NCBI GenBank assembly: GCA_964654205.1
Contig: CAZZHR010000002.1
Location: 65,800 to 129,799, forward strand
Direction of reading: 5' to 3'
Source of the DNA: an uncultured Candidatus Saccharibacteria bacterium
GTDB taxonomy: Bacteria; Patescibacteriota; Minisyncoccia; Phycocordibacterales; UBA2100
Length of the DNA stretch: 64,000 bases
Shown here one piece after another: positions 7,117 to 44,943 of this stretch; the stretch's first letter is position 1, and every line of letters begins with the position of its first letter. Under the pieces are notes generated by a model that worked only from the letters and a program-made list of their open reading frames with translations, was not told the DNA's origin and did no database searches. Both the position numbers and the translations under genes were made by a program.

Positions 7117-7632
7117 CTATGACAGTACGTTCCGCGAACGTCGAAAAAGAACGTACGCACCGAAAAGGAGTAGGGGTGTGAGGATCACACCGCCCACCAA
7201 ATACGGCGCAGGAAAAACACGTTCACCTTCGACGACAGTGATGGAGAACTCGTTCGCGGCAAGCTCCTCGCCGTCTGCCGTTCTGTAACTCACACTCAGC
7301 GCAAACGTACCCTGCTCTGGGAACGTGTAAAGGAGCGTGGTCGGGCCGAAAGTTTGGAAACGGACTCCGGTCGCAAGAAGTGTTTTTCGCTCTCTCATTA
7401 CCCTCACCCACACATGGTCGAAATGCTCGAACGCGAGGTCTTCTTCTGCTCGCAGTTCAAACTCAAACCGTGACGCGCGCCCGGCTTCGAACGTAGGCTC
7501 ATCGTAGCCAATATCAATGAAAAAAGGTGACGATGTGGCTTCGAGGGAGTATCCGAGCGAATGCGCATTGACTATCGAGTAGGGAGCTACCGCGAGGAAA
7601 AGCAGGAGGATGCAGAACAGCACACGCCGCAT
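7117..7632 (-). CDS. secreted / C-terminally anchored beta-sandwich-like protein, unknown function
   Basis: Signal peptide MRRVLFCILLLFLAVAPYSIVNA and a C-terminal TM (LVGGVILTPLLLFGAYVLF). A TAGACT box lies 7 nt upstream of the ATG. Confidence 0.6.
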   Translation of the reverse strand: MRRVLFCILLLFLAVAPYSIVNAHSLGYSLEATSSPFFIDIGYDEPTFEAGRASRFEFELRAEEDLAFEHFDHVWVRVMRERKTLLATGVRFQTFGPTTLLYTFPEQGTFALSVSYRTADGEELAANEFSITVVEGERVFPAPYLVGGVILTPLLLFGAYVLFRRSRNVLS

Positions 7633-7649
7633 GTCTGTCAGTCTATCAT

Positions 7650-7874
7650 TCAACGGTTCGCGTGCATCAGGCATTCCGCTCGGACGTACGGCGGAGTCGC
7701 GTCACAGAAATTCCTCAACCTCACAGTCTTTTGCGCATGCTGATGCAAGTCGACTTTTGCATGACCGAGTGCTGTGTCCATTATCCTGCGCGCCCACTCA
7801 AGCATGCGCGCAGCGAGTATCTCGCCGCTCTCGCGGATGAAGTGGGCAACAGCGCTGATAAAGGACTCGTTCAT
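7650..7874 (-). CDS. small hypothetical protein
   Basis: 74 aa. Its ATG is 1 nt after the stop of the upstream gene. There is no recognisable motif. Support comes only from the tight operon spacing. Confidence 0.35.
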   Translation of the reverse strand: MNESFISAVAHFIRESGEILAARMLEWARRIMDTALGHAKVDLHQHAQKTVRLRNFCDATPPYVRAECLMHANR

Positions 7875-7875
7875 A

Positions 7876-9141
7876 TCAATTTTCAGGTGTGGTGGTCGCT
7901 TGCTGCACTTGTTCGCTCTCTGTAGCCACTGGCTCGGTAGTTGTCGCTGGGATTTCTATCTCCGTACTTCCTGCTTCGGTATTCGTGCTTCCCATTCCAC
8001 TCTCCGTACTCCCCCCTTCGTTCCCTCCGCTCTCATTCGACGCTTCTTCATTCATACCTCCTATTTCGTCTCCTTGTTCTTCTTGGACTTCTTCTTGGGC
8101 AGGCGTGCTCGTTGCCGAAATCGTGTCGCTCGACGCTTCTTCATTCGTACTTCCTCCTTCTCCTGCTGGACTTTCAACGTTCACATTTTCACTTTCAACC
8201 TGCGGCGGAGCCGCCGGCCTCACATTCCCCGCCTCGCTCACTTCGCCACCCGGATTCGCAGCATCACCCACGAGCACGATGCGGCGCACTGTTATCACTG
8301 CACCGCCTGGGTCTGTCGCGCTGTATTCAATCGAGTGCGCAGTCGTCGTCGAGGTATCGATGCCAGTCCATGTCGCTTTCTCGACGCCGTTGATGCGCAT
8401 ATACACGCCCGCGTTGGTCTGGTATGGATCGACGAGTACCGCGCCGAGGTCTGCGTAGCTCGCACCGAGCGGAATACGCGCCGGATTGTTGCCGAGGAGC
8501 TGCAGACCTATCTTGAGCCCGCTCGCGCTCGTACTTCCTGCTTCGTTACTCGTACTTCCGTTTCCGCTTCCATCTGCGGGACCAAAGACCGCGGCCGCTG
8601 CGGCCACCTGCGGCTGGACGACAGGGGTGTAGCCGGGGAGCGTCTCGGTGCTGTCATCGAGGAATTTGCCGATAAGGCCGCCGTACGACGTCGCTACGGT
8701 GAGCTGCGTCACTGCGCTCCGCGCGTTCTCTTGTGTCTTGCTCAGCCGCGAAGCCTCGCGTTCTATCACTTGCCTGAGCTGCTGCGTCACGTACAGGCCG
8801 AGGTCGCGATACTCGCCGAGGTCTGTCTTCGAGACCTGCATCGTTACTTTTTTGATTACGTCCTTCCAGACGTACTCGTCGACATCTATCGTGTGGAATT
8901 CGTACTCTACGAAATAGTCGTTCTCGTCTTCGGTGACCGCGGTGATGACAGCACGCGGGCTGTAGCTCGAGAGGTCCTTGCCGACGAGGTAGGTGTTGTC
9001 CACGGTGAGCACTTCATGCTGCTGCGAGTAGATGGCCTCCGGATTCGTCGCCGCAAAGACCCCCGTGCCGCCTAGAATCAGGATGCCGAGTGCCACCGGC
9101 ACGGCATTGTGATACTGAAAGAAGTGAAGAAGTGGGGTCAT
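7876..9141 (-). CDS. membrane-anchored surface protein with an Ig-like (DUF5011-type) domain and an acidic low-complexity tail
   Basis: N-terminal TM (VPVALGILILGGTGVFA). The segment GNNPARIPLGASYADLGAVLVD...SIEYSATDPGG fits the DUF5011 Ig-like pattern. The C-terminal 120 aa or so are rich in E/S/T/G. Confidence 0.72.
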   Translation of the reverse strand: MTPLLHFFQYHNAVPVALGILILGGTGVFAATNPEAIYSQQHEVLTVDNTYLVGKDLSSYSPRAVITAVTEDENDYFVEYEFHTIDVDEYVWKDVIKKVTMQVSKTDLGEYRDLGLYVTQQLRQVIEREASRLSKTQENARSAVTQLTVATSYGGLIGKFLDDSTETLPGYTPVVQPQVAAAAAVFGPADGSGNGSTSNEAGSTSASGLKIGLQLLGNNPARIPLGASYADLGAVLVDPYQTNAGVYMRINGVEKATWTGIDTSTTTAHSIEYSATDPGGAVITVRRIVLVGDAANPGGEVSEAGNVRPAAPPQVESENVNVESPAGEGGSTNEEASSDTISATSTPAQEEVQEEQGDEIGGMNEEASNESGGNEGGSTESGMGSTNTEAGSTEIEIPATTTEPVATESEQVQQATTTPEN

Positions 9142-9175
9142 AGGTGAGAGGTTAGAGTTGATAGTTTTTAGTTGA
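9141..9175 (+). repeat. direct repeat copy 1: TAGGTGAGAGGTTAGAGTTGATAGTTTTTAGTTGA
   Basis: About 29/35 identical to the copy at 9532-9566. It spans the stop codon and 3' end of the four-helix-bundle gene. Confidence 0.8.
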
Positions 9176-9598
9176 TAAGGGTGTACGCAACTTCCCGATA
9201 ATCGCCGTAAGCATTCGCTGTACTTCGTCGAGCAATTCGATGGATTTGGAGAAATCTATACTGGGAAAGAGCCGTTGCGCCGCGAGAAGCTGTGTTTCCA
9301 GCTCCGCGGCTGAACCAGCCGAGACGCATAAGAATTGCGCGTAATCCTTCCTTGTCCCCCTCTTTGTACCCTCGGCTATGTTTGAGGGGATTGATATTGC
9401 GGCGCGCCGCATCTGGCTCATCAGACCAAACTGCTCCGACTGTGGGAGTTTCGCGGTATCGCGGTACATCGTTTCGACAAGACTCATAGCCCTCTGCCAC
9501 ACGACCAAATCCTTGAAAGACCGCACAGGGGTAGGTGCGAGGTTAGAGTTTTTAGTTTTTAGGTTTGAGCTGTGTGTCGTTTTCATATTTCTTTTCAC
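9152..9598 (-). CDS. four-helix-bundle protein of the 23S rRNA intervening-sequence (S23-IVS) family
   Basis: FKDLVVWQRAMSLVETMY, SQMRRAAISIPSNIAEG and SAGSAAELETQLLAA are hallmark motifs. The start is GTG 9598 or ATG 9586. Confidence 0.85.
   Translation of the reverse strand: MKRNMKTTHSSNLKTKNSNLAPTPVRSFKDLVVWQRAMSLVETMYRDTAKLPQSEQFGLMSQMRRAAISIPSNIAEGTKRGTRKDYAQFLCVSAGSAAELETQLLAAQRLFPSIDFSKSIELLDEVQRMLTAIIGKLRTPLSTKNYQL
9532..9566 (+). repeat. direct repeat copy 2: TAGGTGCGAGGTTAGAGTTTTTAGTTTTTAGGTTT
   Basis: Lies in the 5' codons of the four-helix-bundle gene, 391 bp from copy 1. Confidence 0.8.
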
Positions 9599-9601
9599 TA
9601 A

Positions 9602-9615
9602 AACCTCTAACCTAT
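9602..9615 (-). repeat. inverted copy: ATAGGTTAGAGGTT on the minus strand
   Basis: 13/14 match to ATAGGTGAGAGGTT at 9140-9153 in inverted orientation. The two copies bracket the four-helix-bundle gene. Confidence 0.75.
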
Positions 9616-10112
9616 AAACTCATCACTACCTTCCCAATAATGTCGACTTGTTGAACTGCTCCGAAGACGCGCCCATCGCTGCTCTTGCTGCGATTGTCAC
9701 CGAGCACAAGGTAATCTTCTGGCCCGAGTTGCATACGAAATGCTCCATTGTTCGTCCCGCCTATCATGCTTCCCGTCTCGTACCTCGTACTCTTTCCTTC
9801 GCTATCAGTGACCGTCACTCCATCTTCGCCAAGCTCTACAAGCTCACCGGGCAAGCCAATCACCCGTTTCACTTCAATCACCTCTTTCTGGTGCGGATTG
9901 CGATGCACGAGTATGTCGCCACGGCTAATGTGGAATCGGTGAGTCACCTTTTCGACGATAACAACGTCGTTCGCAGAAAACGTCGGCTCCATCGAGCCGC
10001 CAGAGACCACGTACGGACGGAAAATGAAAACCGAAGACAGCAGCGCGAGCGCAATGACAGTCGCAATCGTCTCTTTGTGCGTTCGTATCGTTGTGTGCAA
10101 TTGGTACGTCAT
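9612..10112 (-). CDS. lepB: signal peptidase I (S26 family)
   Basis: SGGSMEPTF (catalytic Ser), VKRVIGLPGE (Lys box), VLGDNRSKSSDGR and an N-terminal TM. Confidence 0.9.
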   Translation of the reverse strand: MTYQLHTTIRTHKETIATVIALALLSSVFIFRPYVVSGGSMEPTFSANDVVIVEKVTHRFHISRGDILVHRNPHQKEVIEVKRVIGLPGELVELGEDGVTVTDSEGKSTRYETGSMIGGTNNGAFRMQLGPEDYLVLGDNRSKSSDGRVFGAVQQVDIIGKVVMSL

Positions 10113-10114
10113 AT

Positions 10115-13100
10115 CTAAATTTCCATCCCGAGCATGAGCGCGAGGGCTTGGACGAAGCTGTTTGATGTGGCGGCAGGGGCGGCAGAATATTTGAACGGCT
10201 GCTCCGCGAACGCGGCGTAGACCATTGTGTCGCCGCTCGTGTTGAGGAAGGTGGTTCTTAACTTGAAACCATTGGCTAGAGAATCAATGACGTCTGCGGG
10301 TGCCGACTCTTGAGACGAACCATCGGCGCCCAAAACGCCACTTATTGGATTGTAGGTGTTCCTTGTTGTATCCAACATCCACCAACTACCCGTCGTTCCA
10401 ACCGCGGGCTTAAGCATGACAAACCGCGGCTTGAAGCCGGTGTAGACGAACGGACCGTCGGTCGAGCCATTGCCGGTGTAGGAGCCAAATGCCGACATGC
10501 CGGTCGTGGAGGCAAAGAGGTACGCCGCGTACTCGCTCCCGCCACCTACGCCGCCCGGTGTGCTCGAGGAATCGGTGAGTGCGCCGTTCTCCGTAAATGC
10601 TCCGCCTCGCCCCCTGTTGATGTGCCAATTGTCGCTCGTTCCAGAGAAGTACACATCGGGGACGAGTGTGGAACCGACCCCGATGACGGGCACGGGTTCG
10701 CCATTCGCGTCGATGAAGAAGCGCCTATTGGCTTCGACCGAGAGGTCCAGGCTCGTCCCGAACTTTATCCAAAGGTCTTTGATGTCTCCCGTGAGCTTGA
10801 AGCCCGCGTCCGGTTCCGCCCCCACCGCGAAGTTGCCTCTCGTCCAGTCGATCGTGTCGTTGGTAAGCGTGGAGCCGCCCGAATTGAAGTCGCTCACATC
10901 GTTGCGGTAGACCCAGGCGGAGCCGGTGTTTAGGTCGACCGAGAAGAGGTAGTGCACCCAGCCACTCGAGGCGAGCGTCTGCGTCGAGGAGTTCAGGATC
11001 ATGTCGAAGTTGTTGGACGCGTCGAGCCCCACGACCTGGATCACCTGCGTACCCGCCGTGCGTACGATGTAGAAGCCCGTGCCGAGGTCTCCCGTCGCTG
11101 CGATCGTCTGGTTGGTGCTATCTGCGCCCGTAATGTTGACCCAAAAAGAGACAGTTAACCGTTTGCCGTCCACGACGTCTGTGAGGTTTGCACCGCGCGT
11201 GAGGTAATCGTTGGTACCGTCGAAATGCGCGGCGCCGCCTTTGTTCACATCGGCATTCGTCCCCACGGTGAAGGCGCTTGCGGTAGGCGCGGTGTCGTTC
11301 CAGTAGGTCGCGTCGTCGGCAGTCGCAGCTGTGCTGTTGAGCAATAGATAGTCAGTCGCCGGTGCAGATGTATTGGACGAGTGATAGACCGCCCAATCGC
11401 CGGAGCCCGAAGCTTGTGTGTACGAGCGGAGCATCGCGCTCCCCTGATCGGCGATCGCCACGCTTGTGGCAGAGAGCGCCGCAACCGCGGGGTTCGGAGT
11501 CGTGCCGTCGACGATACCGCTCCCGTCGGCCACCTCTCTCCAATCGGTACCGTCGAAGGCGTACACACGGAGCTCGTTGGTCGTTGAGTCCACGAATGCC
11601 ACTCTGTTGCGGCCCAGCGCCGCCATGCCCGTCGAGCCTCCACTCGATTCGATTGTGAGAGAATTGCCCACCTGAGACCAATTCGTGCCGTCGAAATCAT
11701 ACGCGCGCAGCTGCTTTGTCCCCGAGTAGTCGTAGAGGGCTACGCGCGAAGCCGAGAGCGCCGCGAGGGAAGGGAGTGTGATGCCGCTGATGTTGAGCTC
11801 GTTCCCAGTCAGAGTCCAGTTGGTGCCGTCGAAATCATACGCGCGCAAGTCGTCGTTGGTGCCGTCGATAAAGGCTATGCGGTCGGACAGGAGCCCCGCA
11901 AGCGCGGGAGATCCCACGCCCGAGATGTTGAGCTCGTTGCCGGTCAGCGACCATGTAGAGCCGTTGAAATCGTATGCGCGCAAGTCGTCATTCCCGCTGT
12001 CAATAAATGCGACACGGCTCGAAAGCATAGTTGCGAGCGAGGGCGACCCTATACCCGAGATGCTGAGTCCGCTTCCTGTGAGAGACCAATTCGACGAGCT
12101 CAGGTCGTATGCGCGCAAAGACGCATTCCCGAAATCAACATATGCCACCCTCGTCGCGGAGAGCGCGGCAAGCGCGGGAGTATTGATACCGCTTATCGTG
12201 AGGCTGTTGCTCGTCTGTGCCCAGTCTCCGCGCACCTCTTTCACGAGCATGAAGTCCGGCGCTTTACCGAGCGAATGGCTCACCGTCCTGCTCTTACCCG
12301 TCCCCTTGTACGAGACGATGTCGAACCCGGCCTCCGCCGTCTCTTTCCAGAGCCATGAGATGTAGTTCTTGCCGCTCGTGTTGACGTTGGCCGAGCTCGC
12401 GCCGGAGCCGAGGCTGAAGCCGTTGTCGTCGTACGACGTGAGCGATTCCGTGTCGTCGACATCTTCACCGGCGGTCAGATTGGAGCTGAGCCACGCCTGC
12501 ACCCCGCGCAGAGCATCGAAGAGCGCATGGTTGGTCGAAGCGTCGGTACGGTTCTTTATCCACACGAGGTCGGGGCTAAAGCCGGTAACCGTTGTGCTTG
12601 TACCCGTCTGGTAGACAGACTTTGCCGCACCCGTGCCTGCGTACGCGATCGCATCAAAATAATTCTTCGGCACCACCACATCCGGCTCGGGCAAGTTGGC
12701 GGTCGAGAGTGCTTTGAAGCCAGAGGGCGGTTCGTATCTGAAATATCCCCCCGCCGCCGAGTAGTGCGTCGTCGTAGTTGTCCCTGGCTGACCAAAGTTT
12801 ATTGAAGCGCTTGCACCCGTGTAGACGGCGAGTGATGGAAATACAGGGTCAGCTCCGCTGAGTGTGGCGGCAGCTCCTGTGCCTCCTACTGGGTCACCAC
12901 TGTTCTGCCATGTCCCGTTTTTTGAGAAGTAAATCTTCTTGTTATCCAAATCAAGCGCTACACCGACGACATCGTTCGTTGTAAACGTATTGCCGTACGC
13001 GGCATTGGTCCCTCCGTTGTACGTCGTACCATCATGCCCGTAGTAGCTGATGCCCCCATTAGCAGACGAGCCGCCGGGAAATGCGCCGAGTGTCATCGGA

Positions 13101-14242
13101 GTGAACGCTGTGGAAGTTGCAACCCCGACGAGATAAAAATTACTGCCACTACTCTGTGCACCAGCTGTCACTTCCCAATACCATTTACCACTCGTGACAC
13201 CAATAATTGAGAGTGCCGTAAGAAAATTCCCAGCACTATGAGTCATACTCAAGTTGCCTTGAGAAAGAGTCAGCGAAGAGTTTTTGTAAATCGAGTTAAG
13301 TGTCGCAAACGCGTTCGTCGGGGTGTCGATGACTTGGTCGGTTGCGTCGAGGTTGTTGGCGGTCCAGTTGTTGCCGTTGCCGGATGTGTCGGTGCCAAGC
13401 GCCGCACTGTTGCCAAAGGCGAGCTTGAAGCCATTTGTCCCATACGTGCCCGTGTACGACTTCGGCCGCCAGTATCCATTGGCGTCGTACTCGCCGAAAG
13501 AGGTGGGCGTGAGCGCCTGCCCGTCGACAAAATGTAGGTCGGAGAGGTAGACATCAATCGAGCAACATGCACCCCCTTGTTGCTGACCGATACGATTGTT
13601 CGCATTGGCGAGCGCGAATTGGTACTCAGCGTTTTGTGCGGGATAATTCGCAGCGTCAAACGCCGTAATCTGCATCCCATCGATGTACATCTTCACTCTA
13701 TTCGCTGCAGTCGCATCTGTCGTGTCCCACACAACTACGACATGCATCCATTTTGATGGATCGCGAAAAAGTGCCGAGCTGCGAAGTTCGGCGGAAGTAG
13801 CCCCGCCGAAGGCGAAACTCAGGTTGTCCGCTGCAGCGCCGCCCGCCCCGAATTCAAGCCACGAAGAATTGCTCGACGAACCATCGTAGCCGGCAACTAT
13901 CGTTTGTCTCGTCCCCAAATTCCCCCTTTTTATCCACGTAGATATCGTTCCCTTCTTACGGTCAGCGGGTGCACCGGAGAATGTCTTGCTTAGGTTTGCA
14001 CTGTCATCGTCGTTGAAGCGAGCGCTGTTCGCGATCGTGTACGCCGCCTCCGCCTGCGGGAGTGTGAGAAGCGCAAACTGCGCGCCAAACCACGCCAGCG
14101 CGACAATCGCCGCCACAACCACCCGCCACCTCCACAGCCCGTTCAAAGCGTTCAAGGAGGCGTGCAAGGGGCGCCCTTGCACATGTGCAAGGGCGCCCCT
14201 TGCGCCGGAGATTTTGAGAAACTTGGTGAAGAGATTACTCAT
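10115..14242 (-). CDS. giant (1375 aa) signal-anchored surface protein: LamG, SPRY, six 45-aa repeats, LamG, plus three copies of a phage-structural-protein-like module
   Basis: One uninterrupted ORF with an N-terminal TM (VVVAAIVALAWFGAQFALL). Its domain signatures are listed as separate features. Its start forms an ATGA overlap with the RAYT stop. Confidence 0.9.
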   Translation of the reverse strand: MSNLFTKFLKISGARGALAHVQGRPLHASLNALNGLWRWRVVVAAIVALAWFGAQFALLTLPQAEAAYTIANSARFNDDDSANLSKTFSGAPADRKKGTISTWIKRGNLGTRQTIVAGYDGSSSNSSWLEFGAGGAAADNLSFAFGGATSAELRSSALFRDPSKWMHVVVVWDTTDATAANRVKMYIDGMQITAFDAANYPAQNAEYQFALANANNRIGQQQGGACCSIDVYLSDLHFVDGQALTPTSFGEYDANGYWRPKSYTGTYGTNGFKLAFGNSAALGTDTSGNGNNWTANNLDATDQVIDTPTNAFATLNSIYKNSSLTLSQGNLSMTHSAGNFLTALSIIGVTSGKWYWEVTAGAQSSGSNFYLVGVATSTAFTPMTLGAFPGGSSANGGISYYGHDGTTYNGGTNAAYGNTFTTNDVVGVALDLDNKKIYFSKNGTWQNSGDPVGGTGAAATLSGADPVFPSLAVYTGASASINFGQPGTTTTTHYSAAGGYFRYEPPSGFKALSTANLPEPDVVVPKNYFDAIAYAGTGAAKSVYQTGTSTTVTGFSPDLVWIKNRTDASTNHALFDALRGVQAWLSSNLTAGEDVDDTESLTSYDDNGFSLGSGASSANVNTSGKNYISWLWKETAEAGFDIVSYKGTGKSRTVSHSLGKAPDFMLVKEVRGDWAQTSNSLTISGINTPALAALSATRVAYVDFGNASLRAYDLSSSNWSLTGSGLSISGIGSPSLATMLSSRVAFIDSGNDDLRAYDFNGSTWSLTGNELNISGVGSPALAGLLSDRIAFIDGTNDDLRAYDFDGTNWTLTGNELNISGITLPSLAALSASRVALYDYSGTKQLRAYDFDGTNWSQVGNSLTIESSGGSTGMAALGRNRVAFVDSTTNELRVYAFDGTDWREVADGSGIVDGTTPNPAVAALSATSVAIADQGSAMLRSYTQASGSGDWAVYHSSNTSAPATDYLLLNSTAATADDATYWNDTAPTASAFTVGTNADVNKGGAAHFDGTNDYLTRGANLTDVVDGKRLTVSFWVNITGADSTNQTIAATGDLGTGFYIVRTAGTQVIQVVGLDASNNFDMILNSSTQTLASSGWVHYLFSVDLNTGSAWVYRNDVSDFNSGGSTLTNDTIDWTRGNFAVGAEPDAGFKLTGDIKDLWIKFGTSLDLSVEANRRFFIDANGEPVPVIGVGSTLVPDVYFSGTSDNWHINRGRGGAFTENGALTDSSSTPGGVGGGSEYAAYLFASTTGMSAFGSYTGNGSTDGPFVYTGFKPRFVMLKPAVGTTGSWWMLDTTRNTYNPISGVLGADGSSQESAPADVIDSLANGFKLRTTFLNTSGDTMVYAAFAEQPFKYSAAPAATSNSFVQALALMLGMEI
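10748..11236 (-). other. second LamG/concanavalin-like (Laminin_G_3-type) domain, aa ~1003-1165
   Basis: AAHFDGTNDYL...LTVSFWVN...GWVHYLFSVDLNTGSAWVYRND...FAVGAE fits the Laminin_G_3 pattern. Confidence 0.65.
11408..12217 (-). repeat. six tandem in-frame ~135-bp (45-aa) repeats, likely a beta-propeller
   Basis: Unit consensus LRAYDFDGTNW(S/T)LTGNELNISG(I/V)GSPSLAALSxxRVAFxDxxNDx. The GAAATCRTAYGCGCGCA motif recurs about every 135 nt on the plus strand. Confidence 0.85.
12788..13345 (-). other. SPRY/B30.2-like domain, aa ~300-485
   Basis: The TSGKWYWEV signature, then VVGVALDLDNKKIYFSKNG and FPSLAVYTGASASINFG, match the SPRY pattern. Confidence 0.7.
13508..14035 (-). other. first LamG/concanavalin-like domain, aa ~70-245
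   Basis: GTISTWIKR...WMHVVVVWDTT...VKMYIDG...SDLHFVDGQAL fits the Laminin_G_3 pattern. Confidence 0.65.
14163..14204. repeat. REP-like palindrome doublet: TGCAAGGGGCGCCCTTGCA-CATG-TGCAAGGGCGCCCCTTGCg
   Basis: Two 19-nt near-palindromes (8-bp stems) in inverted orientation form a 42-nt palindrome. It lies within codons 13-27 of the 1375-aa ORF, 35 nt downstream of the RAYT stop. Confidence 0.85.
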
Positions 14243-14901: not shown

Positions 14902-14911
14902 ACTCGATTAG

Positions 14912-17900
14912 TCATCTAAAGCCCGTGGCAGCCGCGCCGAATACGACGAGCGAGCTGGTCGCATTGGTCGCGACAAATGAGACGAGGTCACATTGGTTGG
15001 CCGTCGTGGTGAGTGTCGGTGCGCTTCCACCCTGCCAGCGCACGACCGCTGGCCAGGTCAGTGTGCGGCTTCCCGTGCCGTCTTGGCACACCACGAGACG
15101 GAGGATTTGCCCCGCGATGAAATTGGAGAATGTAATCGTGCGGTTGCCGCCGAGTGTCACCTTCTGCTGGTTGCCTTCAAGCCAGTTGATAGCCACGGTC
15201 GCGCCGTCGGAGAGACTCCTTTCCACCGTGGTGATAGCGCCACCCGCACCCACCGCAAATTTCGCAAACGGCGTCGATGTACCCACACCCACGTTGCCGT
15301 TGGCGTTGATGACAAAGAGGGACTGCGCTGTGGTGGAAGCGACCTGTATGAAGTTGGTCGAGCTATCCTGCGTCTCTATCGTGAGCTTGGCCGCAGGGGT
15401 CGTGGTGCCGATTCCTGCCGCTGTCTCTACATAGAGCTTGCCCGCTCCAGTCGGCGACGTGGGGCAGCCGGATGCGCAGACAAGGAGGTTGTCGTCGGAG
15501 AGCAGAATGTTTTTGTTGGACGTGTGTATCGTAAGGTCGCCAGTCGAGTCCACTTGGAGCGAGGCGACCGTGGAATCATTGTACGAAATCGCTACCTGAG
15601 GATTCGCCGCTGCAGCCGTCACCGAGAACTTGCGGTACGGCGATGTGGTGCCGACACCGAAGAATCCGGCACTCGTGGCGCGCATCACCTCGGTGAGCGC
15701 GCCACTTTGCAGTGTCGAGAACACGAGGTCGCCCTTCCCGAGCCCGCCGAAGTTCTGTTGCAAGATGCTCGTGATTGCAGAAGTCGTCGTACCCGTGCCG
15801 GTGACATCGAGCGCGCGGAATGAGAGCCGCGATGCGGTCGATGTCGCGCTCGCCGCATTGGTGAGGTAGAGCTGGTCGGCGGTCGCGCCGGAAGATGTGT
15901 TGTAGACATCGAGCTTCGTGCCCGGCGTCGTCGTACCGATGCCGACATTGCCCGTGCTGGTGATGCGCATTCGCTCTTGGCTCGACTCATATCCACCAGT
16001 CCTAAACTGAATACTGTCGGAGCCGCCTGATGCAACATTCCCGTTGGTAAAGAGCACCAGACTAGTATTCGAACCGAAACTCGTGTTTCCGCCGAGACCG
16101 TATCCGACACCAGACCCGTACGCACGGAAGTAGCCTGTCGCAGTATCGCTATGTACAGTGTATGTGCTCTGACCATTGCTATTTGCATTCGTCACCGTGA
16201 CCCCGTCGACGCTCGCTACATTGCTGTACACAGTGAGTTTTGTAGACGGAGTCGTCGTCCCTACCCCCACGTTGCCGGTGTTTGTCACCGCAAAGAGCGA
16301 GCTCGTCGCGCTCGCGGTCGAGCTCGCTATCTCGAAGAGCATCGTATTGGTCTCGCCCGACAGTGCGTGCACTGAGAGCTTAGCCCACGGCGACGACGTG
16401 CCGATACCGAAGCGCGCATTGACCGTATCCCACGTGAGCGTACTCGACGCCGCCATCACGCCGCCGTAGTTGAATTGTATGTTGCCGTTGCCGCCTGCCG
16501 GAGCCGAGCCGCCGGATGCGAGGAGGGAGCCGGAGAAGTATGTGTAGACTGCCGAACCATCGACAGCTGTACCCGTTGAAAGCACCGCTGCTTCGAGATA
16601 GTCGGATGTTCCATTCATGTCGACAATGGTGGTTACTTGCGCCGCATCTGCACCACCCGATCGATAGGGACCGTTTGCTATCGCGACACCGTTCTTACGG
16701 ACAGCTGCCTGACAGTTGTTTGTGGTATTTGTACATCCAACAGACGCGACAACGATATACTTGCCGGCTACCGTAGGTGTGAAGCGGTTGGTCGTTAGGT
16801 CAAAATTGTTGTTGGTATCGTAAGTTTCAGTCGTCCAATCGACCACAAGTACCGTATCGCTCACAGTGGTTGTCGCCGACCCATTGCGATGCACATGGAA
16901 CGCTACCGTAGAAGAAGCGGTTCCAACCGTGCGGTTCGTGTAGACCTTGACCGCGAATCCGCCTGCGCCGCCTGCGCCGCCTGCGCCTCCAGTGCCCGCA
17001 TTTCCAGCGCTACCCCCGGAGCCAACGGTGAAATAGAAAGTCCCCGTCGGACTGCCTACAAGCTCGTACGCGTATCCTCCGCCTCCACCTCCGCCTCCAC
17101 TCCATACGTTGTTGAGATCATTGATTCCGCCGCCAGCCCCTCCTCCTCCGAACGCGTTGCCTGCGCCGCCTGCTGCCGTAGTACCCGCTCCGCCACCCCC
17201 ACCGCGGGCACCATTGCCCCCCGCTCCTCCCACTGCGTACAGATCTTGCGTCTCCCCACCATCCGCATCAATACCAAGCGTGAGTCCGCCTGCACCACCA
17301 ACGAGATTTACTTCGCCACCGGAGCCAGAACCGCCAGATGCCGCAGGCCCATTGGAGCCAGACCCACCGCCTCCGCCCGTCGCACTTAAGTGCGGAGAGG
17401 AGCATGCGACAGAATTGCTTCCGAAGCATGTCGTACCTCCTACGCCACCATTGCCGCCGTTGCCTCCACCGCCACCCCCTCCACCGCCGCCCCAAACCTC
17501 CACTTCTATATATGACGTATCGCTCGGGAGCGTGAGCGTGCCACCGGAGAAGCTCGGTGCGCTGCCGGGGTCTCCGGTGAAGACCACCGACGAGGTTCCC
17601 ACAGTGGAAGTCGCGTATGTTCCTATGAGCGTGTTGCCACCACCTCCGCCTCCACTCGAGCCGCTCCCCGTCCCCGCACACTGTCCGCTCGGGAGCAGGA
17701 AGCAGCCGCTCGTGAGTTGGACGCCACCCGCAAAGGTGGATGTTGCCGAGCCGGTGATATTGAGGAGTGTTGATTGAATGCCGCCAGAGAATGTTGTGGT
17801 GGAAGGCGACCCAAACGTCGCTGCGCCGGTGGATGCCGAGAACGAGAGCGCGGCTACCGTAGAAGTCGACGAGTGCGTCGAGGTGGCGAGGTAGAAGGTG

Positions 17901-20900
17901 CTGCCGATGTTGCGGAGTGTCCAGAGATTGCTGCCGAGCCCGTCCGAGAGCGCGAGCTGCGGACCTGTCGAGCTCGCGACCGTAAGAATATGGTACGGTG
18001 TCGTCGTACCGATGCCGAACGTACCGTTGAAATAGCCGAGACCGTTGTCGAGAATGCGGAAGCGCGTCGTCGAGGCGGAGTCGAAGAATTCCGTGAGTAT
18101 GCCCGTGCCCGTCCCAGATCCCTGCACTGAGAGCTTAGCCCACGGTGACGTGGTGCCGATTCCGACGTTGCCCGTCGAACCCTGAATGAGCATTCTCGTC
18201 GCGTAACTCCCGGCCGTTGCGTTGGCCTTGAAATGGAGGTCGCCATTGTTGCCCGTCTGCCCTATCTCCGCCCAGCCCGTGCCAGTACCCGCGCCGCCGG
18301 TCGTGAATATCATGCTGCCGACGTTGCCTGTACCGGCTCTGTTGAGGAAGAGTCGGAAGTCGCCCGACGTGTCAAAGGCCGCACTCGTACCGAAGACGTC
18401 GAGCTTACTCCCCGGCGTCGTCGTACCGATTCCCACGCTGCCGGTGCTCTTTACCGCCAAAAGGTCACCGCCGGATCCGCTCGATGAGTTGAGCTGCAAG
18501 AGGTCCGCGCTGGAACCGGTATGAAGACTTCCAACGATGACGGGCTTCGCGATGTCGTGCTCGTTGTAGATGTTGAAGATACCTGTAAAGGTCGGGGAGG
18601 TTTTGCCAAAACCGATCTCCCCCGTGGGACTGACGATGAAGGCGTTGACGCCGTCGGTCCTGTTCTGGAAGAAGAGCGCCCCAGCAGGAGTATTGCCGCT
18701 ATCCCCCGCGAGGAAGCCCCATTTCTTACCGCCGGAGTCCGTATTCTGGAGATTGAACCACGGATCGCTGCCGCTCACATGGAACTTCGCGTCGCTTGAA
18801 GCTGCGCCCACGCCGAGCAGACCCTGCACGAGTAGGTTACCTGTCGTCGTCGCGCCGCCTGAGATCGTGAGGCCGCCCGCCTGTGTGCCGTCGCCGATGG
18901 TGGAACTTGCTGTGACACCGAGGCCGCCAGTTACAGCGAGTGTGGTCCACGGACTTACGTTGCCGATACCGACACTTCCACCACCGCTTTGAAGGACGAG
19001 ATTATTCCATGCACCGGCACCGCTGCTCTGTGCGCTGAGTCCAAAATAAGTATTGCCCGTGCTCGCGCCCGACGCTACAAAGAGCACCGAACCGGCTGAA
19101 CCAGAGACCCAATCGCTCGTCGTTATCGCAAGTTGTGAAGGCGCATTACCGCCAGTAATTTGCAACTTACCGTTGGTCGGACTCGCCGTGCCGATACCGA
19201 AGTTGCCGCTGATGCGGTCGACGAAGACGAGCGGCGAGGAGGTACCGACGGTAAAGAGCGAGGTCGATGGCGGCGTCGATGTGCCGACGGCGAGACCGCC
19301 GGAGGCGATTGTGCTCGTCGCCGTCGTCGAAGTGGCGACGAAATATGAAGCGTCGACGAATGACGTAAAGCGAGCATTGCCACTAACGTGAAGCTTATAG
19401 GTGGGAGAGGTATTACCTATACCTACAGAGCCAGCTGTATTGAGGAACAATAAGTCTGTCGCCGCGGCGCCCGTGCTGATGGAAAATCCAGAGCTATCGT
19501 TACCACTGATTCCGACTTTCCATTCTGGAGTCGTACCGCTTCTGACAAAGCTGACATTCGGTGCCACATTTCCGTTTATCAAAATTCCTTGATACGTCGT
19601 TCCTGCAGTCACATGGAGTGGCTGCTGCGGATTTGTTGTTCCAATTCCAACCCGACCGCTTGGGTTCCAAATGCCGGAGCCCGGGAAGAATGCGGTGCCA
19701 GAGACAGAGAGCGCGGTTGAGGACGCATACGGGAACGTGGACGCTGCTGTGGTAGAAGTCGCAGTGAAGATTGGCGCGGTGATGGTGTTGTATGCGGTGA
19801 GTGCGCCGCGCAGGAGTGAGCTGCCCGCGACTGAGAGGTTTCCGCTTGAGTCGATGGTCGTCGTCGCGCTGCCGCCGAAGTACGCAGTGCCAAAGTTGGA
19901 GAAGTTAGTACTCGACGCATTCCCCGAGAATATCTGGAGCGCCGTCCAGTTGTTGGAGACACTTGTGTCCACGGAGCCCCCACCGCCCGTGATACAAGCA
20001 CCGTCTACGGCAAAGCATCCGTCGGCGAGGTTTATTCCATTGGCAAATGTGGTAGTAGCCGAGCCGGTAAAGGTAATATCGCTCAGCGTAGTCCCAGAAA
20101 GGGTACCGCCCGTAATCGTCGAGTCGGAGATATCGACGCTGCTGAGCTGATCGATTTTGTTTGTGTGCGCGACCGTCTGATACACATTGGTAATACTTGC
20201 CGACTGCGCTGTAGAGACACCGGCGACGAGGCTTGTGAGTCGCTGTTCCACGGCTGCGATCCGCGTATCGAGGTCGGCATCCGTGATGCCGCCGACAGAT
20301 GCAACTATGCGCTCGGTCTCGACGATACGTTCAACGACTCGTTCGTTTGTCACCACAGTCGATGTGCTCACAACAACAGGCGTTTGCTGCGATTGCGCTA
20401 CGATAACCTGTGCGCGTTCATACGGATCCATCGTGTCGATGAATCCCGCATCGAGCGGTGTAAGTGCGAGCGAGTTCGTCGCGTCACTCGGGAACACGAT
20501 GTTGTAGACGAACGTGTCGACGCTCGTGTTGACTGCCTTCGCGATGGTGCGCAGCGCATCAGGGAAGAAAGAAAGTGTCGCGCTCGATACTTGTGCGAGC
20601 GCGACCTCGGGATTCTCAACCGCATAGTACGTCGCATCACTCGCCGCGCGCACCGCGCGCGTCGCCACTTCATCAACTCGTACGAGCGACTGCGCGACGC
20701 TCGCCGCCATCTCGCGCGTAGTCTCCGCTGCAAACCGCGCATAGGCTGGGTCGACAAACGCATACGTGCCAAATGTCATGGTGAACGCAACGAGCATCGC
20801 GACAAACTTCTGCAGAAACTCCGTCGCGGGAGAAATCGTGTACACCGGCACGTGCACATGTGCGTGACTCAAAGTACGAGCAACCGCCTCGTGCACGCCC

Positions 20901-21349
20901 GACGGCGCCGCTGCGATAGACGGCATCGCGTGAGCGACCTTCGCGCTCTGCGCCACCGCCGCAGCCTTCAATTTTTCCTGCACATGCTTCGCGTGCGCCG
21001 CCAACGTCTTCGTCACAGGTATTTGTCCGCTCACAGAAAGGGCGCTCTCGACACTCTTTACACTTTCAGATTTCAACTTTATATCTTGTGGCTTATTCTC
21101 CACCCCGTGATATTCACGCACCCGTTCATCCGACAGCTGCTCCCTGCGGATGGTTTTCGCATGCTCTTGCTCCACGAGGTATTTTTGGAGCGAGCCCTCA
21201 TCGACGTACCAGTTCTTGCCGATTCTTCTACCGCGAAGCCTTCCATCACGGCAAAGACGAGCGATGTAGTCGCGAGAGAGCCCTGCACTGGATGAAGCAT
21301 CCCCGGCCGAGAGGTGCTTCTGCCCGTCGAAATATATTTCGTTGCTCAT
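14912..21349 (-). CDS. giant (2145 aa from ATG 21349) membrane protein: cytoplasmic excisionase-type HTH, one TM, then an ectodomain of GIGTTxP repeats, a glycine-rich domain and a C1q-like domain
   Basis: One uninterrupted ORF. Modules are listed separately. I prefer ATG 21349 (MSNEIYFDG) over GTG 21430 because the paralogous module in the next gene starts at the same relative position. Confidence 0.9.
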   Translation of the reverse strand: MSNEIYFDGQKHLSAGDASSSAGLSRDYIARLCRDGRLRGRRIGKNWYVDEGSLQKYLVEQEHAKTIRREQLSDERVREYHGVENKPQDIKLKSESVKSVESALSVSGQIPVTKTLAAHAKHVQEKLKAAAVAQSAKVAHAMPSIAAAPSGVHEAVARTLSHAHVHVPVYTISPATEFLQKFVAMLVAFTMTFGTYAFVDPAYARFAAETTREMAASVAQSLVRVDEVATRAVRAASDATYYAVENPEVALAQVSSATLSFFPDALRTIAKAVNTSVDTFVYNIVFPSDATNSLALTPLDAGFIDTMDPYERAQVIVAQSQQTPVVVSTSTVVTNERVVERIVETERIVASVGGITDADLDTRIAAVEQRLTSLVAGVSTAQSASITNVYQTVAHTNKIDQLSSVDISDSTITGGTLSGTTLSDITFTGSATTTFANGINLADGCFAVDGACITGGGGSVDTSVSNNWTALQIFSGNASSTNFSNFGTAYFGGSATTTIDSSGNLSVAGSSLLRGALTAYNTITAPIFTATSTTAASTFPYASSTALSVSGTAFFPGSGIWNPSGRVGIGTTNPQQPLHVTAGTTYQGILINGNVAPNVSFVRSGTTPEWKVGISGNDSSGFSISTGAAATDLLFLNTAGSVGIGNTSPTYKLHVSGNARFTSFVDASYFVATSTTATSTIASGGLAVGTSTPPSTSLFTVGTSSPLVFVDRISGNFGIGTASPTNGKLQITGGNAPSQLAITTSDWVSGSAGSVLFVASGASTGNTYFGLSAQSSGAGAWNNLVLQSGGGSVGIGNVSPWTTLAVTGGLGVTASSTIGDGTQAGGLTISGGATTTGNLLVQGLLGVGAASSDAKFHVSGSDPWFNLQNTDSGGKKWGFLAGDSGNTPAGALFFQNRTDGVNAFIVSPTGEIGFGKTSPTFTGIFNIYNEHDIAKPVIVGSLHTGSSADLLQLNSSSGSGGDLLAVKSTGSVGIGTTTPGSKLDVFGTSAAFDTSGDFRLFLNRAGTGNVGSMIFTTGGAGTGTGWAEIGQTGNNGDLHFKANATAGSYATRMLIQGSTGNVGIGTTSPWAKLSVQGSGTGTGILTEFFDSASTTRFRILDNGLGYFNGTFGIGTTTPYHILTVASSTGPQLALSDGLGSNLWTLRNIGSTFYLATSTHSSTSTVAALSFSASTGAATFGSPSTTTFSGGIQSTLLNITGSATSTFAGGVQLTSGCFLLPSGQCAGTGSGSSGGGGGGNTLIGTYATSTVGTSSVVFTGDPGSAPSFSGGTLTLPSDTSYIEVEVWGGGGGGGGGGNGGNGGVGGTTCFGSNSVACSSPHLSATGGGGGSGSNGPAASGGSGSGGEVNLVGGAGGLTLGIDADGGETQDLYAVGGAGGNGARGGGGGAGTTAAGGAGNAFGGGGAGGGINDLNNVWSGGGGGGGGYAYELVGSPTGTFYFTVGSGGSAGNAGTGGAGGAGGAGGFAVKVYTNRTVGTASSTVAFHVHRNGSATTTVSDTVLVVDWTTETYDTNNNFDLTTNRFTPTVAGKYIVVASVGCTNTTNNCQAAVRKNGVAIANGPYRSGGADAAQVTTIVDMNGTSDYLEAAVLSTGTAVDGSAVYTYFSGSLLASGGSAPAGGNGNIQFNYGGVMAASSTLTWDTVNARFGIGTSSPWAKLSVHALSGETNTMLFEIASSTASATSSLFAVTNTGNVGVGTTTPSTKLTVYSNVASVDGVTVTNANSNGQSTYTVHSDTATGYFRAYGSGVGYGLGGNTSFGSNTSLVLFTNGNVASGGSDSIQFRTGGYESSQERMRITSTGNVGIGTTTPGTKLDVYNTSSGATADQLYLTNAASATSTASRLSFRALDVTGTGTTTSAITSILQQNFGGLGKGDLVFSTLQSGALTEVMRATSAGFFGVGTTSPYRKFSVTAAAANPQVAISYNDSTVASLQVDSTGDLTIHTSNKNILLSDDNLLVCASGCPTSPTGAGKLYVETAAGIGTTTPAAKLTIETQDSSTNFIQVASTTAQSLFVINANGNVGVGTSTPFAKFAVGAGGAITTVERSLSDGATVAINWLEGNQQKVTLGGNRTITFSNFIAGQILRLVVCQDGTGSRTLTWPAVVRWQGGSAPTLTTTANQCDLVSFVATNATSSLVVFGAAATGFR
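16517..16906 (-). other. C1q/TNF-like jelly-roll domain (130 aa)
   Basis: VAFHVHRNG...FDLTTNRFTPTVAGKYIVVASV...AAVRKNGVAIANG...VDMNGTSDYLEAAV...YTYFSGSLLA follows the C1q globular-domain pattern (F.A...F...G.FT.P..G.Y.F...KNG...L..GD.V...F.G.LL). Confidence 0.6.
16940..17515 (-). other. glycine-rich domain of the type seen in phage minor-tail / ALK-like Gly_rich proteins
   Basis: Opens with IEVEVWGGGGGGGGGGNGGNGG, has internal EVNLVGGAGG and FYFTVGSGGSAGNAGTGGAGG, and closes with GGFAVKVY. Confidence 0.6.
21173..21349 (-). other. excisionase-type (HTH_17-like) module at the N-terminus of the giant protein
   Basis: IYFDGQKHLSAGDASSSAGLSRDYIARLCRDGRLRGRRIGKNWYVDEGSLQKYL fits the pattern of HTH_17, a MerR-superfamily helix-turn-helix (hEaA..lGvs..ti.rl.r.G.l....iG..w.i....l..yl). 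Confidence 0.6.
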
Positions 21350-21650
21350 GAGCGATGATGCCTGTGGCCGGACGCACGATTTATCTAATATTCTACTACT
21401 CTTTTCGCCAATTGGACGTGTATCGGACACTATTACGTGTGGACAAGCCTAAGCAGAATTTGTACCGGACATTTTTTACATTTTTTCCCACAAGTTCGTA
21501 TCAACGCACAAAAAATTCTCCGTTTTTTTGAAAAAAAGCCTCTTCACTACAACCTCTCACCTCTTACCTACCCCCCTCCTCCCGGCCGACTCGGGCATCC
21601 GAGGAGCGACGTAGAGCGGTATTCCGCGCGTGTGTGGCGCAGAAAATGAA

Positions 21651-21670
21651 CGGCGCCCAATTGGGCGCCG
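21651..21670 (-). terminator. hairpin / terminator: CGGCGCCCAATTGGGCGCCG
   Basis: A perfect 20-nt palindrome 26 nt downstream of the 21696 stop, followed on the minus strand by TTCATTTT. Confidence 0.55.
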
Positions 21671-21695
21671 CCTTAAGGCCTAGTCACTACACGAA

Positions 21696-22682
21696 TCAGC
21701 GCGAATAGCGTACTTCTTTGCTCACGATGGCTTCCAGAAGGTCGATGAGTACTTCGAGGCCACTCGCTGCATTTGCGGTCATGGTCTCAACCGCGCCAAC
21801 ATCTGCCGCCTCGAACATTGCGTAAAGTGATTCACTCTTGATCGACGCAAAGCCATACGACATCACGATGACCACGGTGAGAGCCACGCCCGCTTTTATC
21901 GCCAAAGACTTAGACATTCCGGGCATCCGTCCACGTCGCATGGGTGCCGTCTTGGCCACTGCATGCGGCACAGCACCTGCACGAGCCCGCGTCTCAACAA
22001 TGCGAATCAGTACAGCATTCGGAAGCGGCTCCAACGCCGCGCTTCGCACTTCATCATTCGCCACCGTTTTCACGTCGGCTGTCGCATTTTGAGTGTCGCC
22101 CTTCAGCTGAGGTTTGTTCACCATTGGCATAAGATGCTTCTCGTCCCGGATGTAGGTGTAGTACGAGGTAGGCCTCTCATCTGATCTCAGCCCTTGAGGC
22201 ACATTACTCGGTGCCGGTCGTACCAGGCCTACTGCATCCGCCTGGACTGCAGCGAGAAGCGAATCTTTCTGGGATTTATGCGTCAAAAGGCCGTTTCTCT
22301 CGACATACCAGCGATTCCCTATTTGCCGAGAGAGTATTTTGCCGGCCCGAGCGAGCTGACCAATGTAGTCAGGATTGTAGCCTGTCATTTTCGCGGCCTT
22401 TGCCGCCGAGACATAGTCCTTGCCATCGAAGGTAATGAGTGTGTCGGCTGCGTCCACAGGCCGTATAGGGGCTTCTGGTGGCCTTGGGACGAATGAATCA
22501 GCATTGCGCTTGTACGCTTCGAGTGAGGCAGGATTCACGTACCAGAGCCCGCCTACGCGCTGCGCGTCGATGACTCCACCGCGCGCAAGCTGGCCGACGT
22601 AGTCCTGCGCGTAGCCGTATTCCTTTGCCGCGCGCTTCGAAGATATATATGTCGTTCCGCCGAGATATAGCTGATCTGCCAT
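21696..22682 (-). CDS. C-terminally membrane-anchored protein with two tandem excisionase-type HTH modules
   Basis: YISSKRAAKEYGYAQDYVGQLARGGVIDAQRVGGLWYVNPASLEAY and YVSAAKAAKMTGYNPDYIGQLARAGKILSRQIGNRWYVERNGL. TM helix LAIKAGVALTVVIVMSYGFASI near the C-terminus. A TATACT box lies 6 nt upstream of ATG 22682. Confidence 0.8.
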   Translation of the reverse strand: MADQLYLGGTTYISSKRAAKEYGYAQDYVGQLARGGVIDAQRVGGLWYVNPASLEAYKRNADSFVPRPPEAPIRPVDAADTLITFDGKDYVSAAKAAKMTGYNPDYIGQLARAGKILSRQIGNRWYVERNGLLTHKSQKDSLLAAVQADAVGLVRPAPSNVPQGLRSDERPTSYYTYIRDEKHLMPMVNKPQLKGDTQNATADVKTVANDEVRSAALEPLPNAVLIRIVETRARAGAVPHAVAKTAPMRRGRMPGMSKSLAIKAGVALTVVIVMSYGFASIKSESLYAMFEAADVGAVETMTANAASGLEVLIDLLEAIVSKEVRYSR

Positions 22683-44942: not shown

Positions 44943-44943
44943 A

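Follow-up and report, generated by a model that had tools for sequence, protein, structure and literature searches.

What is a run of genes resembling phage tail fibres doing between the housekeeping genes of a bacterium of the Candidate Phyla Radiation (CPR)? The question is raised by a stretch of 64,000 nucleotides (the window) of contig CAZZHR010000002.1 (positions 65,800 to 129,799; assembly GCA_964654205.1), deposited as an uncultured Candidatus Saccharibacteria bacterium, in which nine open reading frames (ORFs) fill the minus strand from 22682 down to 7117. An earlier note, made from the letters alone, had read them as a nine-part, cell-encoded apparatus for recognition or attachment, with its own signal peptidase and with no counterpart among described systems. 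All nine ORFs are present at those coordinates, and what we retain of that proposal is an island of fibre-type surface proteins with fewer parts. We consider it probable, if some way from certain, that the locus is a chromosomal, vertically inherited and fast-evolving surface-fibre island for recognition or attachment, located between gatB and the GAPDH gene of a Kaiserbacteria-like Parcubacterium; the best named relatives of the window proteins belong to Candidatus Kaiserbacteria. Its core genes would be giants of the type of G1 (2145 residues), the second giant G2 (1375 residues), a signal peptidase I (SPase) and the 421-residue protein Ig421, joined in many lineages by the 185-residue protein p185. 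That attachment is to a host cell is suggested by analogy with phage receptor-binding proteins and with the MAT fibres of Bdellovibrio. To our knowledge, no Kaiserbacteria-type organism is in culture. How ultrasmall CPR bacteria find and hold their hosts is, as far as one preprint goes, largely unknown outside the type IV pili of Saccharibacteria (bioRxiv 10.1101/2024.11.25.624915). A membrane-anchored giant fibre and a phage tail-fibre protein 'cellularised' by an export signal are candidates for this contact, and both evolve by module swapping; if they do mediate it, the hosts of uncultured Parcubacteria could be predicted, or fished for, from the variable modules of these proteins.

G1 (14912..21349, minus strand) is a membrane-anchored fibre, and its start, the ATG at 21349, agrees with the N-termini of its orthologues. 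It begins with an HTH_17-like helix-turn-helix (HTH; residues 1-60), followed by a transmembrane (TM) helix at about residues 183-205 and a conserved stalk that reaches to about residue 460. The shaft consists of a predicted beta-helix of 'GIGTTxP' repeats (460-1225; thirteen such repeats occur in the protein), a glycine-rich part (about 1245-1475), a C1q/TNF-like domain (1480-1625) and a second repeat shaft (1625-2042), and it carries a tail-fibre tip domain (2043-2145). Tail-fibre families of PHROG match G1 at 1e-13, short modules of phage fibres match residues 564-1154, 1479-1605 and 2043-2141 in tblastn searches, and residues 564-700 match the crystallised beta-helix part of the Bdellovibrio fibre Bd2133 (PDB 8ond, E 4.9e-6). 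The C1q domain scores 25.4 bits against a Pfam cut-off of 23.7 when residues 1480-1625 are scanned alone; this module and the glycine-rich part are missing from all 46 other G1 homologues that we retrieved. Because G1 has no cleavable leader and combines a folded N-terminal HTH with an internal hydrophobic helix, it is predicted to adopt a type II topology with about 1900 residues outside the membrane. The HTH-TM-stalk module is a protein family of its own, with at least 104 representatives (clusters at 50% identity) at E<1e-30 and 652 when the limit is relaxed to E<1e-10; it nearly always forms the N-terminus, and the proteins that carry it reach 5047 residues.

A variant of this gene is seen in two GROS21 assemblies (L002 and L003), which represent essentially the same genome and differ over 26.4 kb by three clustered single-nucleotide polymorphisms (locus positions 2808, 2818 and 2857). 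Among these is a TAA in place of TAC, by which the G1 orthologue is split into a 394-residue HTH-TM piece and a 2017-residue fibre in one assembly and is intact, with 2560 residues, in the other. The difference could be a natural knock-out, a phase variant or a sequencing error.

The phage parentage is most direct in G2 (10115..14242, minus strand), a lectin-type giant predicted to be secreted. Its 66-residue signal peptide ends at AEA|A and is followed by LamG (67-305), SPRY (353-485) and a DUF7483 unit (about 520-680), then by an insert (682-1239) of six propeller-type repeats of about 46 residues and a second LamG, and finally by a further DUF7483 unit (1240-1355). Pfam supports DUF7483 (1.4e-82), SPRY (4.5e-16) and both copies of Laminin_G_3 (1.5e-12 and 1e-8), and the counterparts of the six repeats, which carry an LRAYD motif, score as LVIVD in the closest orthologue. 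The PHROG families hit are 19943, 'virion structural protein' (5e-161), and 24898, 'tail fiber' (4.5e-53). In tblastn searches G2 matches 71 phage genomes, mostly those of pelagiphages, cyanophages and roseophages, at 35-39% identity; the homologues in pelagiphages, cyanophage SS120-1 and Roseobacter phage CRP-811 occupy the tail-fibre position, and some homologues are full-length and lie inside bona fide phage genomes. BLASTP aligns G2 colinearly with the 796-residue CRP-811 gp32, phage residues 10-622 with G2 residues 68-681 and phage residues 676-795 with G2 residues 1240-1355, the C-terminal unit being 52% identical to its phage counterpart. What G2 has in addition is an N-terminal extension of 66 residues, namely a signal peptide ending LPQAEA|AY, and the insert of about 560 residues with its propeller repeats and second LamG, which corresponds to about 50 residues in the phage protein. 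Leader and AXA junction are kept in orthologues, and the junction lies exactly where phage homology starts; among the best 120 homologues, at least 37 have a hydrophobic leader and at least 32 a short phage-type N-terminus. An AlphaFold2 (AF2) model that covers residues 300-1375 shows good confidence in the core homologous to the phage protein, and the predicted SPRY fold finds matches at E 4e-13 with TM scores of 0.8-0.87; SPRY matches dominate this fold search, which bears on SPRY and not on the fold of the DUF7483 units. Judged by its sequence, then, G2 is a homologue of a phage tail-fibre or virion protein to which a Sec signal peptide and further lectin-type domains have been added. A 1322-residue G2 homologue also occurs in a metagenome-assembled genome labelled Proteobacteria (L088, WGMN01000001.1), where it follows a 908-residue Peptidase_S74 fibre protein and a 1428-residue protein in an otherwise cellular context (acyltransferase, patatin, ABC transporter) that holds no SPase gene; possibly the same pair of phage fibres was recruited a second time, independently, outside the CPR.

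How might such proteins reach the cell surface? The SPase gene (9612..10112, minus strand; 166 residues) starts 2 nt after G2 and encodes an S26A enzyme of the bacterial type with an N-terminal TM anchor: Peptidase_S26 matches at 9e-33 and TIGR02227 at 120 bits (cut-off 47), against an E value of 2e-4 for the SipW model. The Ser/Lys dyad is intact, and S40, K82 and the GDNR box do not vary among five orthologues; the enzyme is predicted to be catalytically competent. Sites of the SPase I type can be read in G2 and p185 and are probable in Ig421. We envision that G1 is inserted by way of its signal-anchor and projects past the wall as a fibre, probably a trimeric one, and that G2 is exported by Sec and cut by SPase I at AEA|A (Ala66|Ala67). 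Site and colinearity are there in the sequence; the cut itself would expose the exact N-terminus with which the phage protein begins. Mature G2 would then be held at the surface by docking, through its phage-type N-terminal region, to G1, Ig421 or p185, and the LamG, SPRY, propeller, C1q and glycine-rich modules would bind glycans or proteins of another cell or surface, as their analogues do. The locus would also document a route by which a phage fibre gene can come to serve at the cell surface, by gain of a leader peptide next to a signal peptidase. Predictions of TM helices and signals for G1, G2, Ig421, p185 and the SPase place the products outside the membrane, in line with the surface exposure proposed before; the tail-fibre-like character of the giants and nearly all domain assignments (tandem HTH, C1q, LamG, SPRY, propeller-type repeats, SPase) are likewise borne out, by profiles or by structure.

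Two smaller proteins accompany the giants. Ig421 (7876..9141, minus strand; 421 residues) has a conserved N-terminal motif F-x-Q-Y-H-N-A-V-P with a TM helix, a conserved domain of about 140 residues and an acidic tail rich in Ser, Thr and Glu. Almost all of the 47 invariant columns in its alignment fall within the first 175 residues. The acidic tail that had been described is evident, and the Ig-like domain that had been described with it (residues 213-291) is a weak match, below the cut-off (Pfam Bact_surface_Ig-like, 0.0015). Orthologues follow the SPase gene in L002 (as a 320-residue ORF), L004, L005 and L007-L009. The family is found at 76 metagenome loci and at none in IMG/VR (2.9 million viral contigs); in the 57 loci with enough upstream sequence, the immediate upstream neighbour is the S26 peptidase in 19 and p185 in 8. 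The latter protein (7117..7674, minus strand; 185 residues) starts with a predicted signal peptide (VNA|H) and ends in a TM anchor, with a beta-rich ectodomain between them; the earlier note had it as an anchored beta-sandwich. Its homologues lie immediately upstream of Ig421 in eight metagenome loci and nearby in two more, and the closest genomes have no orthologue. We found no relative of p185 in Pfam, PDB, PHROG or PADLOC, for Pfam and PDB not even with a family profile. Across the family (the window, L110, L114, L116, L134, L141 and L148) the Ala-His at the predicted cleavage site is invariant, such that the mature N-terminus would be His (His38 in p185); the family also shares invariant G, S, E, D, GY and VR positions. 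A terminal His of this kind would resemble that of the histidine-brace copper sites. Both this family and that of the HTH-TM anchor are uncharacterised protein families that merit structural work.

Is the island a part of the cell's own chromosome? On the lower-coordinate side it is flanked by genes for GAPDH, RpiB, a pilin-like protein, Rpe, a split transketolase and PfkB, and on the higher-coordinate side by GatB, SecA, a PaaX/Cas2-like ORF and an O-antigen-ligase/TPR protein; over the roughly 7-8 kb that we checked per side, all are housekeeping or cell-envelope genes. GC content is even over the region, at 0.55-0.60. In PHROG searches the locus gave no match to capsid, portal, terminase or tape-measure proteins, the only structural matches being fibres, and this absence of packaging and structural genes, already stated in the earlier note, extends over the checked flanks. 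The gene order recurs in relatives. The complete 859-kb genome CP066682.1 (L001) reads GatB - HTH(321) - giant(2256) - IVP - DUF7483 giant(1952) - Y1_Tnp - S26 - 389 - 385 - Ig-like - GAPDH, and the same core is found in the two GROS21 assemblies, in the P0011 contig and in three short GTDB contigs (L007-L009). The closest relative, CAZQMS010000002 (L005; also L090), has this core plus two additional S74-tipped giants, G3 and G4, ahead of GAPDH, and a 588-kb metagenome contig (L125) has a compact version, GatB - HTH - G1(1335) - S26 - 183 - G2(849) - Ig - GAPDH. In JBMXUQ010000011 (L004) the G1/G2/S26/Ig421 block stands between unrelated flanks. Between GatB and GAPDH, relatives have from zero to four giants, and the synteny spans genomes whose GatB proteins are only 60-69% identical. 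Because of the housekeeping flanks, the native GC content, the synteny across this divergence and the lack of any Ig421 relative in viral contigs, we conclude that the locus is cellular and not a prophage, in agreement with the earlier note. Neither of the two outcomes that the note had named as fatal to its reading came up, since the checked flanks are free of phage genes and the synteny is conserved.

Not every ORF in the run belongs to this core, and the count of nine was too high. The four-helix-bundle protein (9152..9598, minus strand; 148 residues) is a member of the 23S rRNA intervening-sequence (IVS) protein family (23S_rRNA_IVP 1.2e-31, TIGR02436 2.9e-32). In relatives its gene stands elsewhere, between G1 and G2 (L001/L005) or between two transketolase genes (L090, 18215-18553), and it is most likely a hitchhiking insert. 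Its core is bracketed in the window by a 31-nt direct repeat (9141-9171 / 9532-9562, 90% identical), and gene and repeats together look like a small mobile cassette. A diversity-generating retroelement with a local Avd was considered and rejected: the locus holds no reverse transcriptase domain and no pair of repeats of the template/variable type, and the protein fits 23S_rRNA_IVP (1e-31) far better than the NCBIfam Avd model (0.0019; cut-off 80).

Two further ORFs do not seem to belong to the core either. The gene between the giants (14239..14901, minus strand; 220 residues), 10 nt after G1 and with an ATGA overlap onto G2, encodes a Y1 (HUH) transposase homologue of the IS200/RAYT type. Y1_Tnp matches at 4e-9 (37 bits; cut-off 23), and both motifs, HUH (CLMPNHFH) and YIHxNP, are kept in five loci. 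Of the earlier assignment as a RAYT transposase, the motifs and the Pfam family hold, and the narrower label does not, since the NCBIfam model REP_Tyr_transpos scores 52 bits, below its cut-off of 80, and no repeat family flanks the gene; the window contains no second copy. The gene occurs in six of nine giant loci versus two of 75 other SPase loci, and its position shifts: before G2 in the window, in GROS21 and in the P0011 contig, after G2 in CP066682 and after Ig421 in L008. The gene is probably a passenger, though one that seems to favour this island. Its homologues (window, L001, L002, L007, L008 and P0011 contig) form two sequence groups, at 69% versus about 32% identity to the window copy. 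The 74-residue ORF (7650..7874, minus strand), which had been counted as a gene of the locus, is a truncated remnant of G3: over residues 1-53 it shares 74% identity with the start (the first 53 residues) of the 2442-residue G3 (Peptidase_S74 plus Ig), encoded after the Ig421 orthologue of the closest relative, and beyond them the sequence is unrelated. No further G3 sequence is left in the window, and neither this ORF nor p185 matches any family. As far as the sequence tells, the ORF is debris of a lost giant and no independent gene, and from the match of this stub to the G3 of the closest relative, both G3 and G4 would have been lost from the window genome.

The island diverges unevenly. Relative to its closest relative, identity is 69% for GatB, 73% for SPase, 83% for Ig421 and 74% for HTH328, the HTH protein encoded upstream of G1; G2 varies between 26 and 63% along its length, and G1 falls from 70-75% over residues 1-600 to about 25% over residues 600-1800, only to rise to 91-93% over the last 195 residues. 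This pattern is consistent with the diversifying evolution expected of a recognition device, and phage receptor-binding proteins and Bdellovibrio MAT fibres are likewise reported to swap modules on a conserved anchor (PMC10769870). The last stretch of about 195 residues (window 14915-15500) is closer to its orthologue than is the housekeeping protein GatB, as would follow if it was exchanged recently or if the partner of the tip is under strong constraint.

How does the island compare with known systems? The earlier note had found none, yet the MAT family of Bdellovibrio (Bd2133, Bd3182 and Bd2439; PMC10769870) is a described class of cell-encoded, phage-tail-fibre-like surface proteins, of a bacterium that lives on other bacteria, as the one studied here is assumed to do, and it is the closest system of which we are aware. 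MAT fibres have long beta-helix shafts, and G1 is predicted to have one, with the sequence match to Bd2133 given above; MAT fibres also share with the fibres of the island mosaic, swappable tips, which are C1q/TNF-like and phage-type modules in G1, Peptidase_S74 and Ig domains in the G3 and G4 of relatives, and TNF/C1q-like, beta-sandwich and S74-chaperone domains among the MATs (PMC10769870). However, MATs are proteins of about 1000 residues, scattered over the genome of a Gram-negative predator, which begin with a signal peptide and an invariant beta-rich N-terminal domain of about 130 residues; a MAT fibre of that size is reported to measure about 55 nm (PMC10769870). By extrapolation, surface fibres on Kaiserbacteria cells might reach the order of 100 nm. 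G1, in contrast, has 2145 residues and an anchor of HTH, TM helix and stalk in place of signal peptide and beta-rich domain, and in this defining feature it is not a MAT; moreover, it is encoded in a syntenic island with SPase, G2 and Ig421 in a CPR bacterium, and its C1q domain is internal and not terminal. Concanavalin/lectin and beta-propeller domains have also been noted as common in predicted CPR surface proteins, in a report that lists the domains only (PMC5220378). In the literature we found no description of the island itself, of a leader-bearing homologue of a phage fibre, of the SPase linkage or of the HTH-TM anchor family.

For G2, the reference is a group of marine-phage DUF7483-SPRY proteins (Pelagibacter phage HTVC011P gp36-37, SS120-1, CRP-811 gp32), with which it is colinear over LamG-SPRY-DUF7483. 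In the phage proteins about 10 residues precede the conserved motif; these proteins lack a leader and are encoded in tail modules, whereas G2 has its signal peptide, its insert and a housekeeping context beside an SPase gene; it is a member of this family by sequence, not by context. A type I signal peptidase gene inside a surface-fibre operon is familiar from tapA-sipW-tasA of Bacillus subtilis and from the SipA/LepA genes of streptococcal pilus islands, and by analogy the arrangement suggests dedicated processing. SipW, however, is an SPase of the endoplasmic reticulum/archaeal type, unlike the bacterial-type enzyme of the window, and the substrates are unrelated.

Several points weigh against a recognition island with the parts that we propose. 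Surface display, trimerisation, cleavage of G2 and binding are all things that we infer, and the episymbiotic lifestyle is assumed from cultivated CPR bacteria. AF2 gave low confidence for the C1q part of G1 and for the propeller/LamG insert of G2, because the alignments lacked those modules. The G1 tip is conserved and the shaft divergent, which is the reverse of the pattern usual for receptor-binding tips. More distant relatives keep p185-Ig421-GAPDH(-RpiB) without any giant, and the giants may thus be add-ons to an unrelated, conserved p185/Ig421 pair. The SPase may be the general enzyme of the cell. Finally, tight one-strand packing is usual in this genome: a second minus-strand run of about ten tightly spaced or overlapping ORFs, known by ORF coordinates only, extends from 43815 to 54845. 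Because of this comparable run, packing alone is not beyond chance; conserved synteny is.

In the most serious alternative, the locus is a variable neighbourhood and not a system. The stretch from gatB to the GAPDH gene would be a permissive one, where independent surface proteins have gathered, the SPase would be the general one and serve the whole secretome, and adjacency would reflect operon packing in a streamlined genome. This would readily explain why giants come and go between GatB and GAPDH, from none to four, why passengers (IVP, Y1, NYN) insert freely and why co-directional ORFs are tightly packed elsewhere in the window. The SPase gives it further weight, being of the canonical bacterial type and free of special features. 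There is one copy in the window, which does not include the gyrA neighbourhood where other Parcubacteria have their SPase gene. We scanned a genome collection with the SPase alignment and considered the best 80 of 225 loci, all from Parcubacteria; among these there is one SPase locus per genome, and in the complete CP066682.1 only the fibre-linked copy appeared. Of the claim that the island has its own signal peptidase, the canonical gene stands, and its dedication is unproven. The linkage itself, however, is hard to attribute to permissiveness. The SPase lies among giants in five of the 80 loci, L006-L009 (at least 46% identity) and L011 (a known locus contig), and the other 75 are never beside such giants. 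In a neighbour-joining tree of 82 Parcubacteria SPases, the eight fibre-linked ones form an exclusive clade (8/8), at 36-73% identity to each other, such that the peptidase has stayed by G2 or G1 down to 36% identity. The G1/G2/S26/Ig421 block is also found under quite different flanks in L004, and the AXA junction of G2 is conserved exactly at the start of phage homology. On balance we hold the purely neighbourly explanation to be unlikely, although it deserves to be taken seriously.

A different set of possibilities concerns the HTH end of G1. Directly after GatB lies HTH328 (21696..22682, minus strand; 328 residues), with two N-terminal HTH_17 domains of the excisionase type (Pfam 1.4e-9, two stretches), one TM helix at about residues 260-278 and a C-terminal tail of about 50 residues; its HTH is paralogous to the G1 N-terminus, and orthologues stand directly after GatB in L001 (42% identity), L005 (74%) and L125. 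Conceivably, the HTH-TM-stalk family comprises undescribed giant 'fibre-sensors', in which a single TM helix couples a phage-type receptor-binding fibre to a cytoplasmic, excisionase-like DNA-binding domain and contact with a host cell is turned into gene regulation or DNA handling, with HTH328 as partner and G2 as detachable specificity subunit. We regard this as doubtful. Alternatively, in a narrower form, the G1-type proteins and HTH328 may be membrane-tethered one-component regulators, whose DNA binding changes upon ligand binding by the fibre, possibly after proteolytic release. ToxR and CadC are built in this way, with an N-terminal cytoplasmic DNA-binding domain of the OmpR-type winged-helix class, one TM helix and an extracytoplasmic sensor, and G1 shares their topology, an N-terminal HTH_17 and a single TM helix before a large ectodomain, although its HTH is excisionase/MerR-like and its ectodomain a fibre of about 1900 residues. 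The module is present in hundreds of giant proteins, and the tandem-HTH/TM paralogue lies directly upstream in several genomes. Yet the HTH_17 match is weak in the window G1 (3.3e-4, compared with 1.5e-9 in the orthologue P0133), and some G1-type fibres begin with a plain signal peptide or a different N-terminus (the G1 of L004, and G3), which implies that the HTH is dispensable for fibre function. Contact sensing of this kind therefore seems to us quite improbable.

Might the fibres instead be turned against phages? Displayed copies of receptor-binding proteins could mask the receptors that phages use on the cell itself, or compete for them, and so protect in the manner of superinfection exclusion or act as decoys. 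G2 does closely copy the structure of a phage fibre protein, and it evolves fast. CPR genomes have moreover been said, as far as one report goes, to carry few classical defence systems (PMC6509639). However, the PADLOC models gave no match for the eight locus proteins other than the 74-residue ORF and we found no precedent, the extra lectin and propeller modules and an anchored fibre of 2000 residues exceed what masking would need, and the locus is conserved over long divergence, unlike patchy defence islands; we consider such a role very improbable. A decayed prophage or a domesticated, tailocin-like tail-fibre remnant without a present role in cell-cell contact is hardly credible, for all that both giants are built of phage fibre modules and G2 has full-length phage homologues: neither the locus nor its checked flanks carry genes for a sheath, tube, baseplate, capsid or terminase, for an integrase or for lysis. 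The frames of 1375 and 2145 codons are open throughout and recur as long frames in many genomes. The proteins have gained a signal peptide and TM anchors, and the locus an SPase; its place between housekeeping genes is stable, and Ig421 is absent from viral contigs.

Returning to the surface-fibre island, its layout is compact. From 7117 upward the spacings between the ORFs are -25, 1, 10, 13, 2, -4 (ATGA), 10 and 346 nt; gaps of at most 13 nt or ATGA overlaps, as given before for 21349 to 7117, describe this block well except for the overlap of the 74- and 185-residue ORFs, which is 25 nt long and not of the ATGA kind. The tight block thus runs from the G1 start down to p185, and HTH328 stands apart by 346 nt and is probably its own transcription unit. 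In this gap lies a terminator-like hairpin (21649..21672, minus strand) of 10 bp, eight of them GC, with a T-rich tail. It is intergenic and the best-scoring of the region, where the number of such sites overall does not exceed shuffle expectation, and as a terminator between HTH328 and G1 it is suggestive only. Scans of the 64-kb window for tRNAs and with Rfam gave no match.

Some features outside the block deserve mention. The pilin-like gene in the lower flank (4671-5126, minus strand) encodes a type IV pilin-like protein of 151 residues (N_methyl 2.7e-9) between RpiB and Rpe, and the same is seen in L002 and L090. The transketolase (2092-4112, minus strand) is split into overlapping N-terminal (3102-4112) and C-terminal (2092-3174) halves, and the split is shared by relatives. 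On the other side, a 36-nt direct repeat (27741-27776 / 28438-28473, 83% identical) flanks a 216-residue ORF (27787-28437, minus strand) with a PaaX-central/Cas2-like domain (PF20803 1.6e-21, CRISPR_Cas2 2.8e-6), which makes it the second repeat-bounded small gene after that of the four-helix-bundle protein; no CRISPR array is seen in the window. Further along, a 155-nt inverted repeat (31493-31647 / 40846-41000, 72% complementary), with its arms 9.2 kb apart, probably represents paralogous gene segments in opposite orientation.

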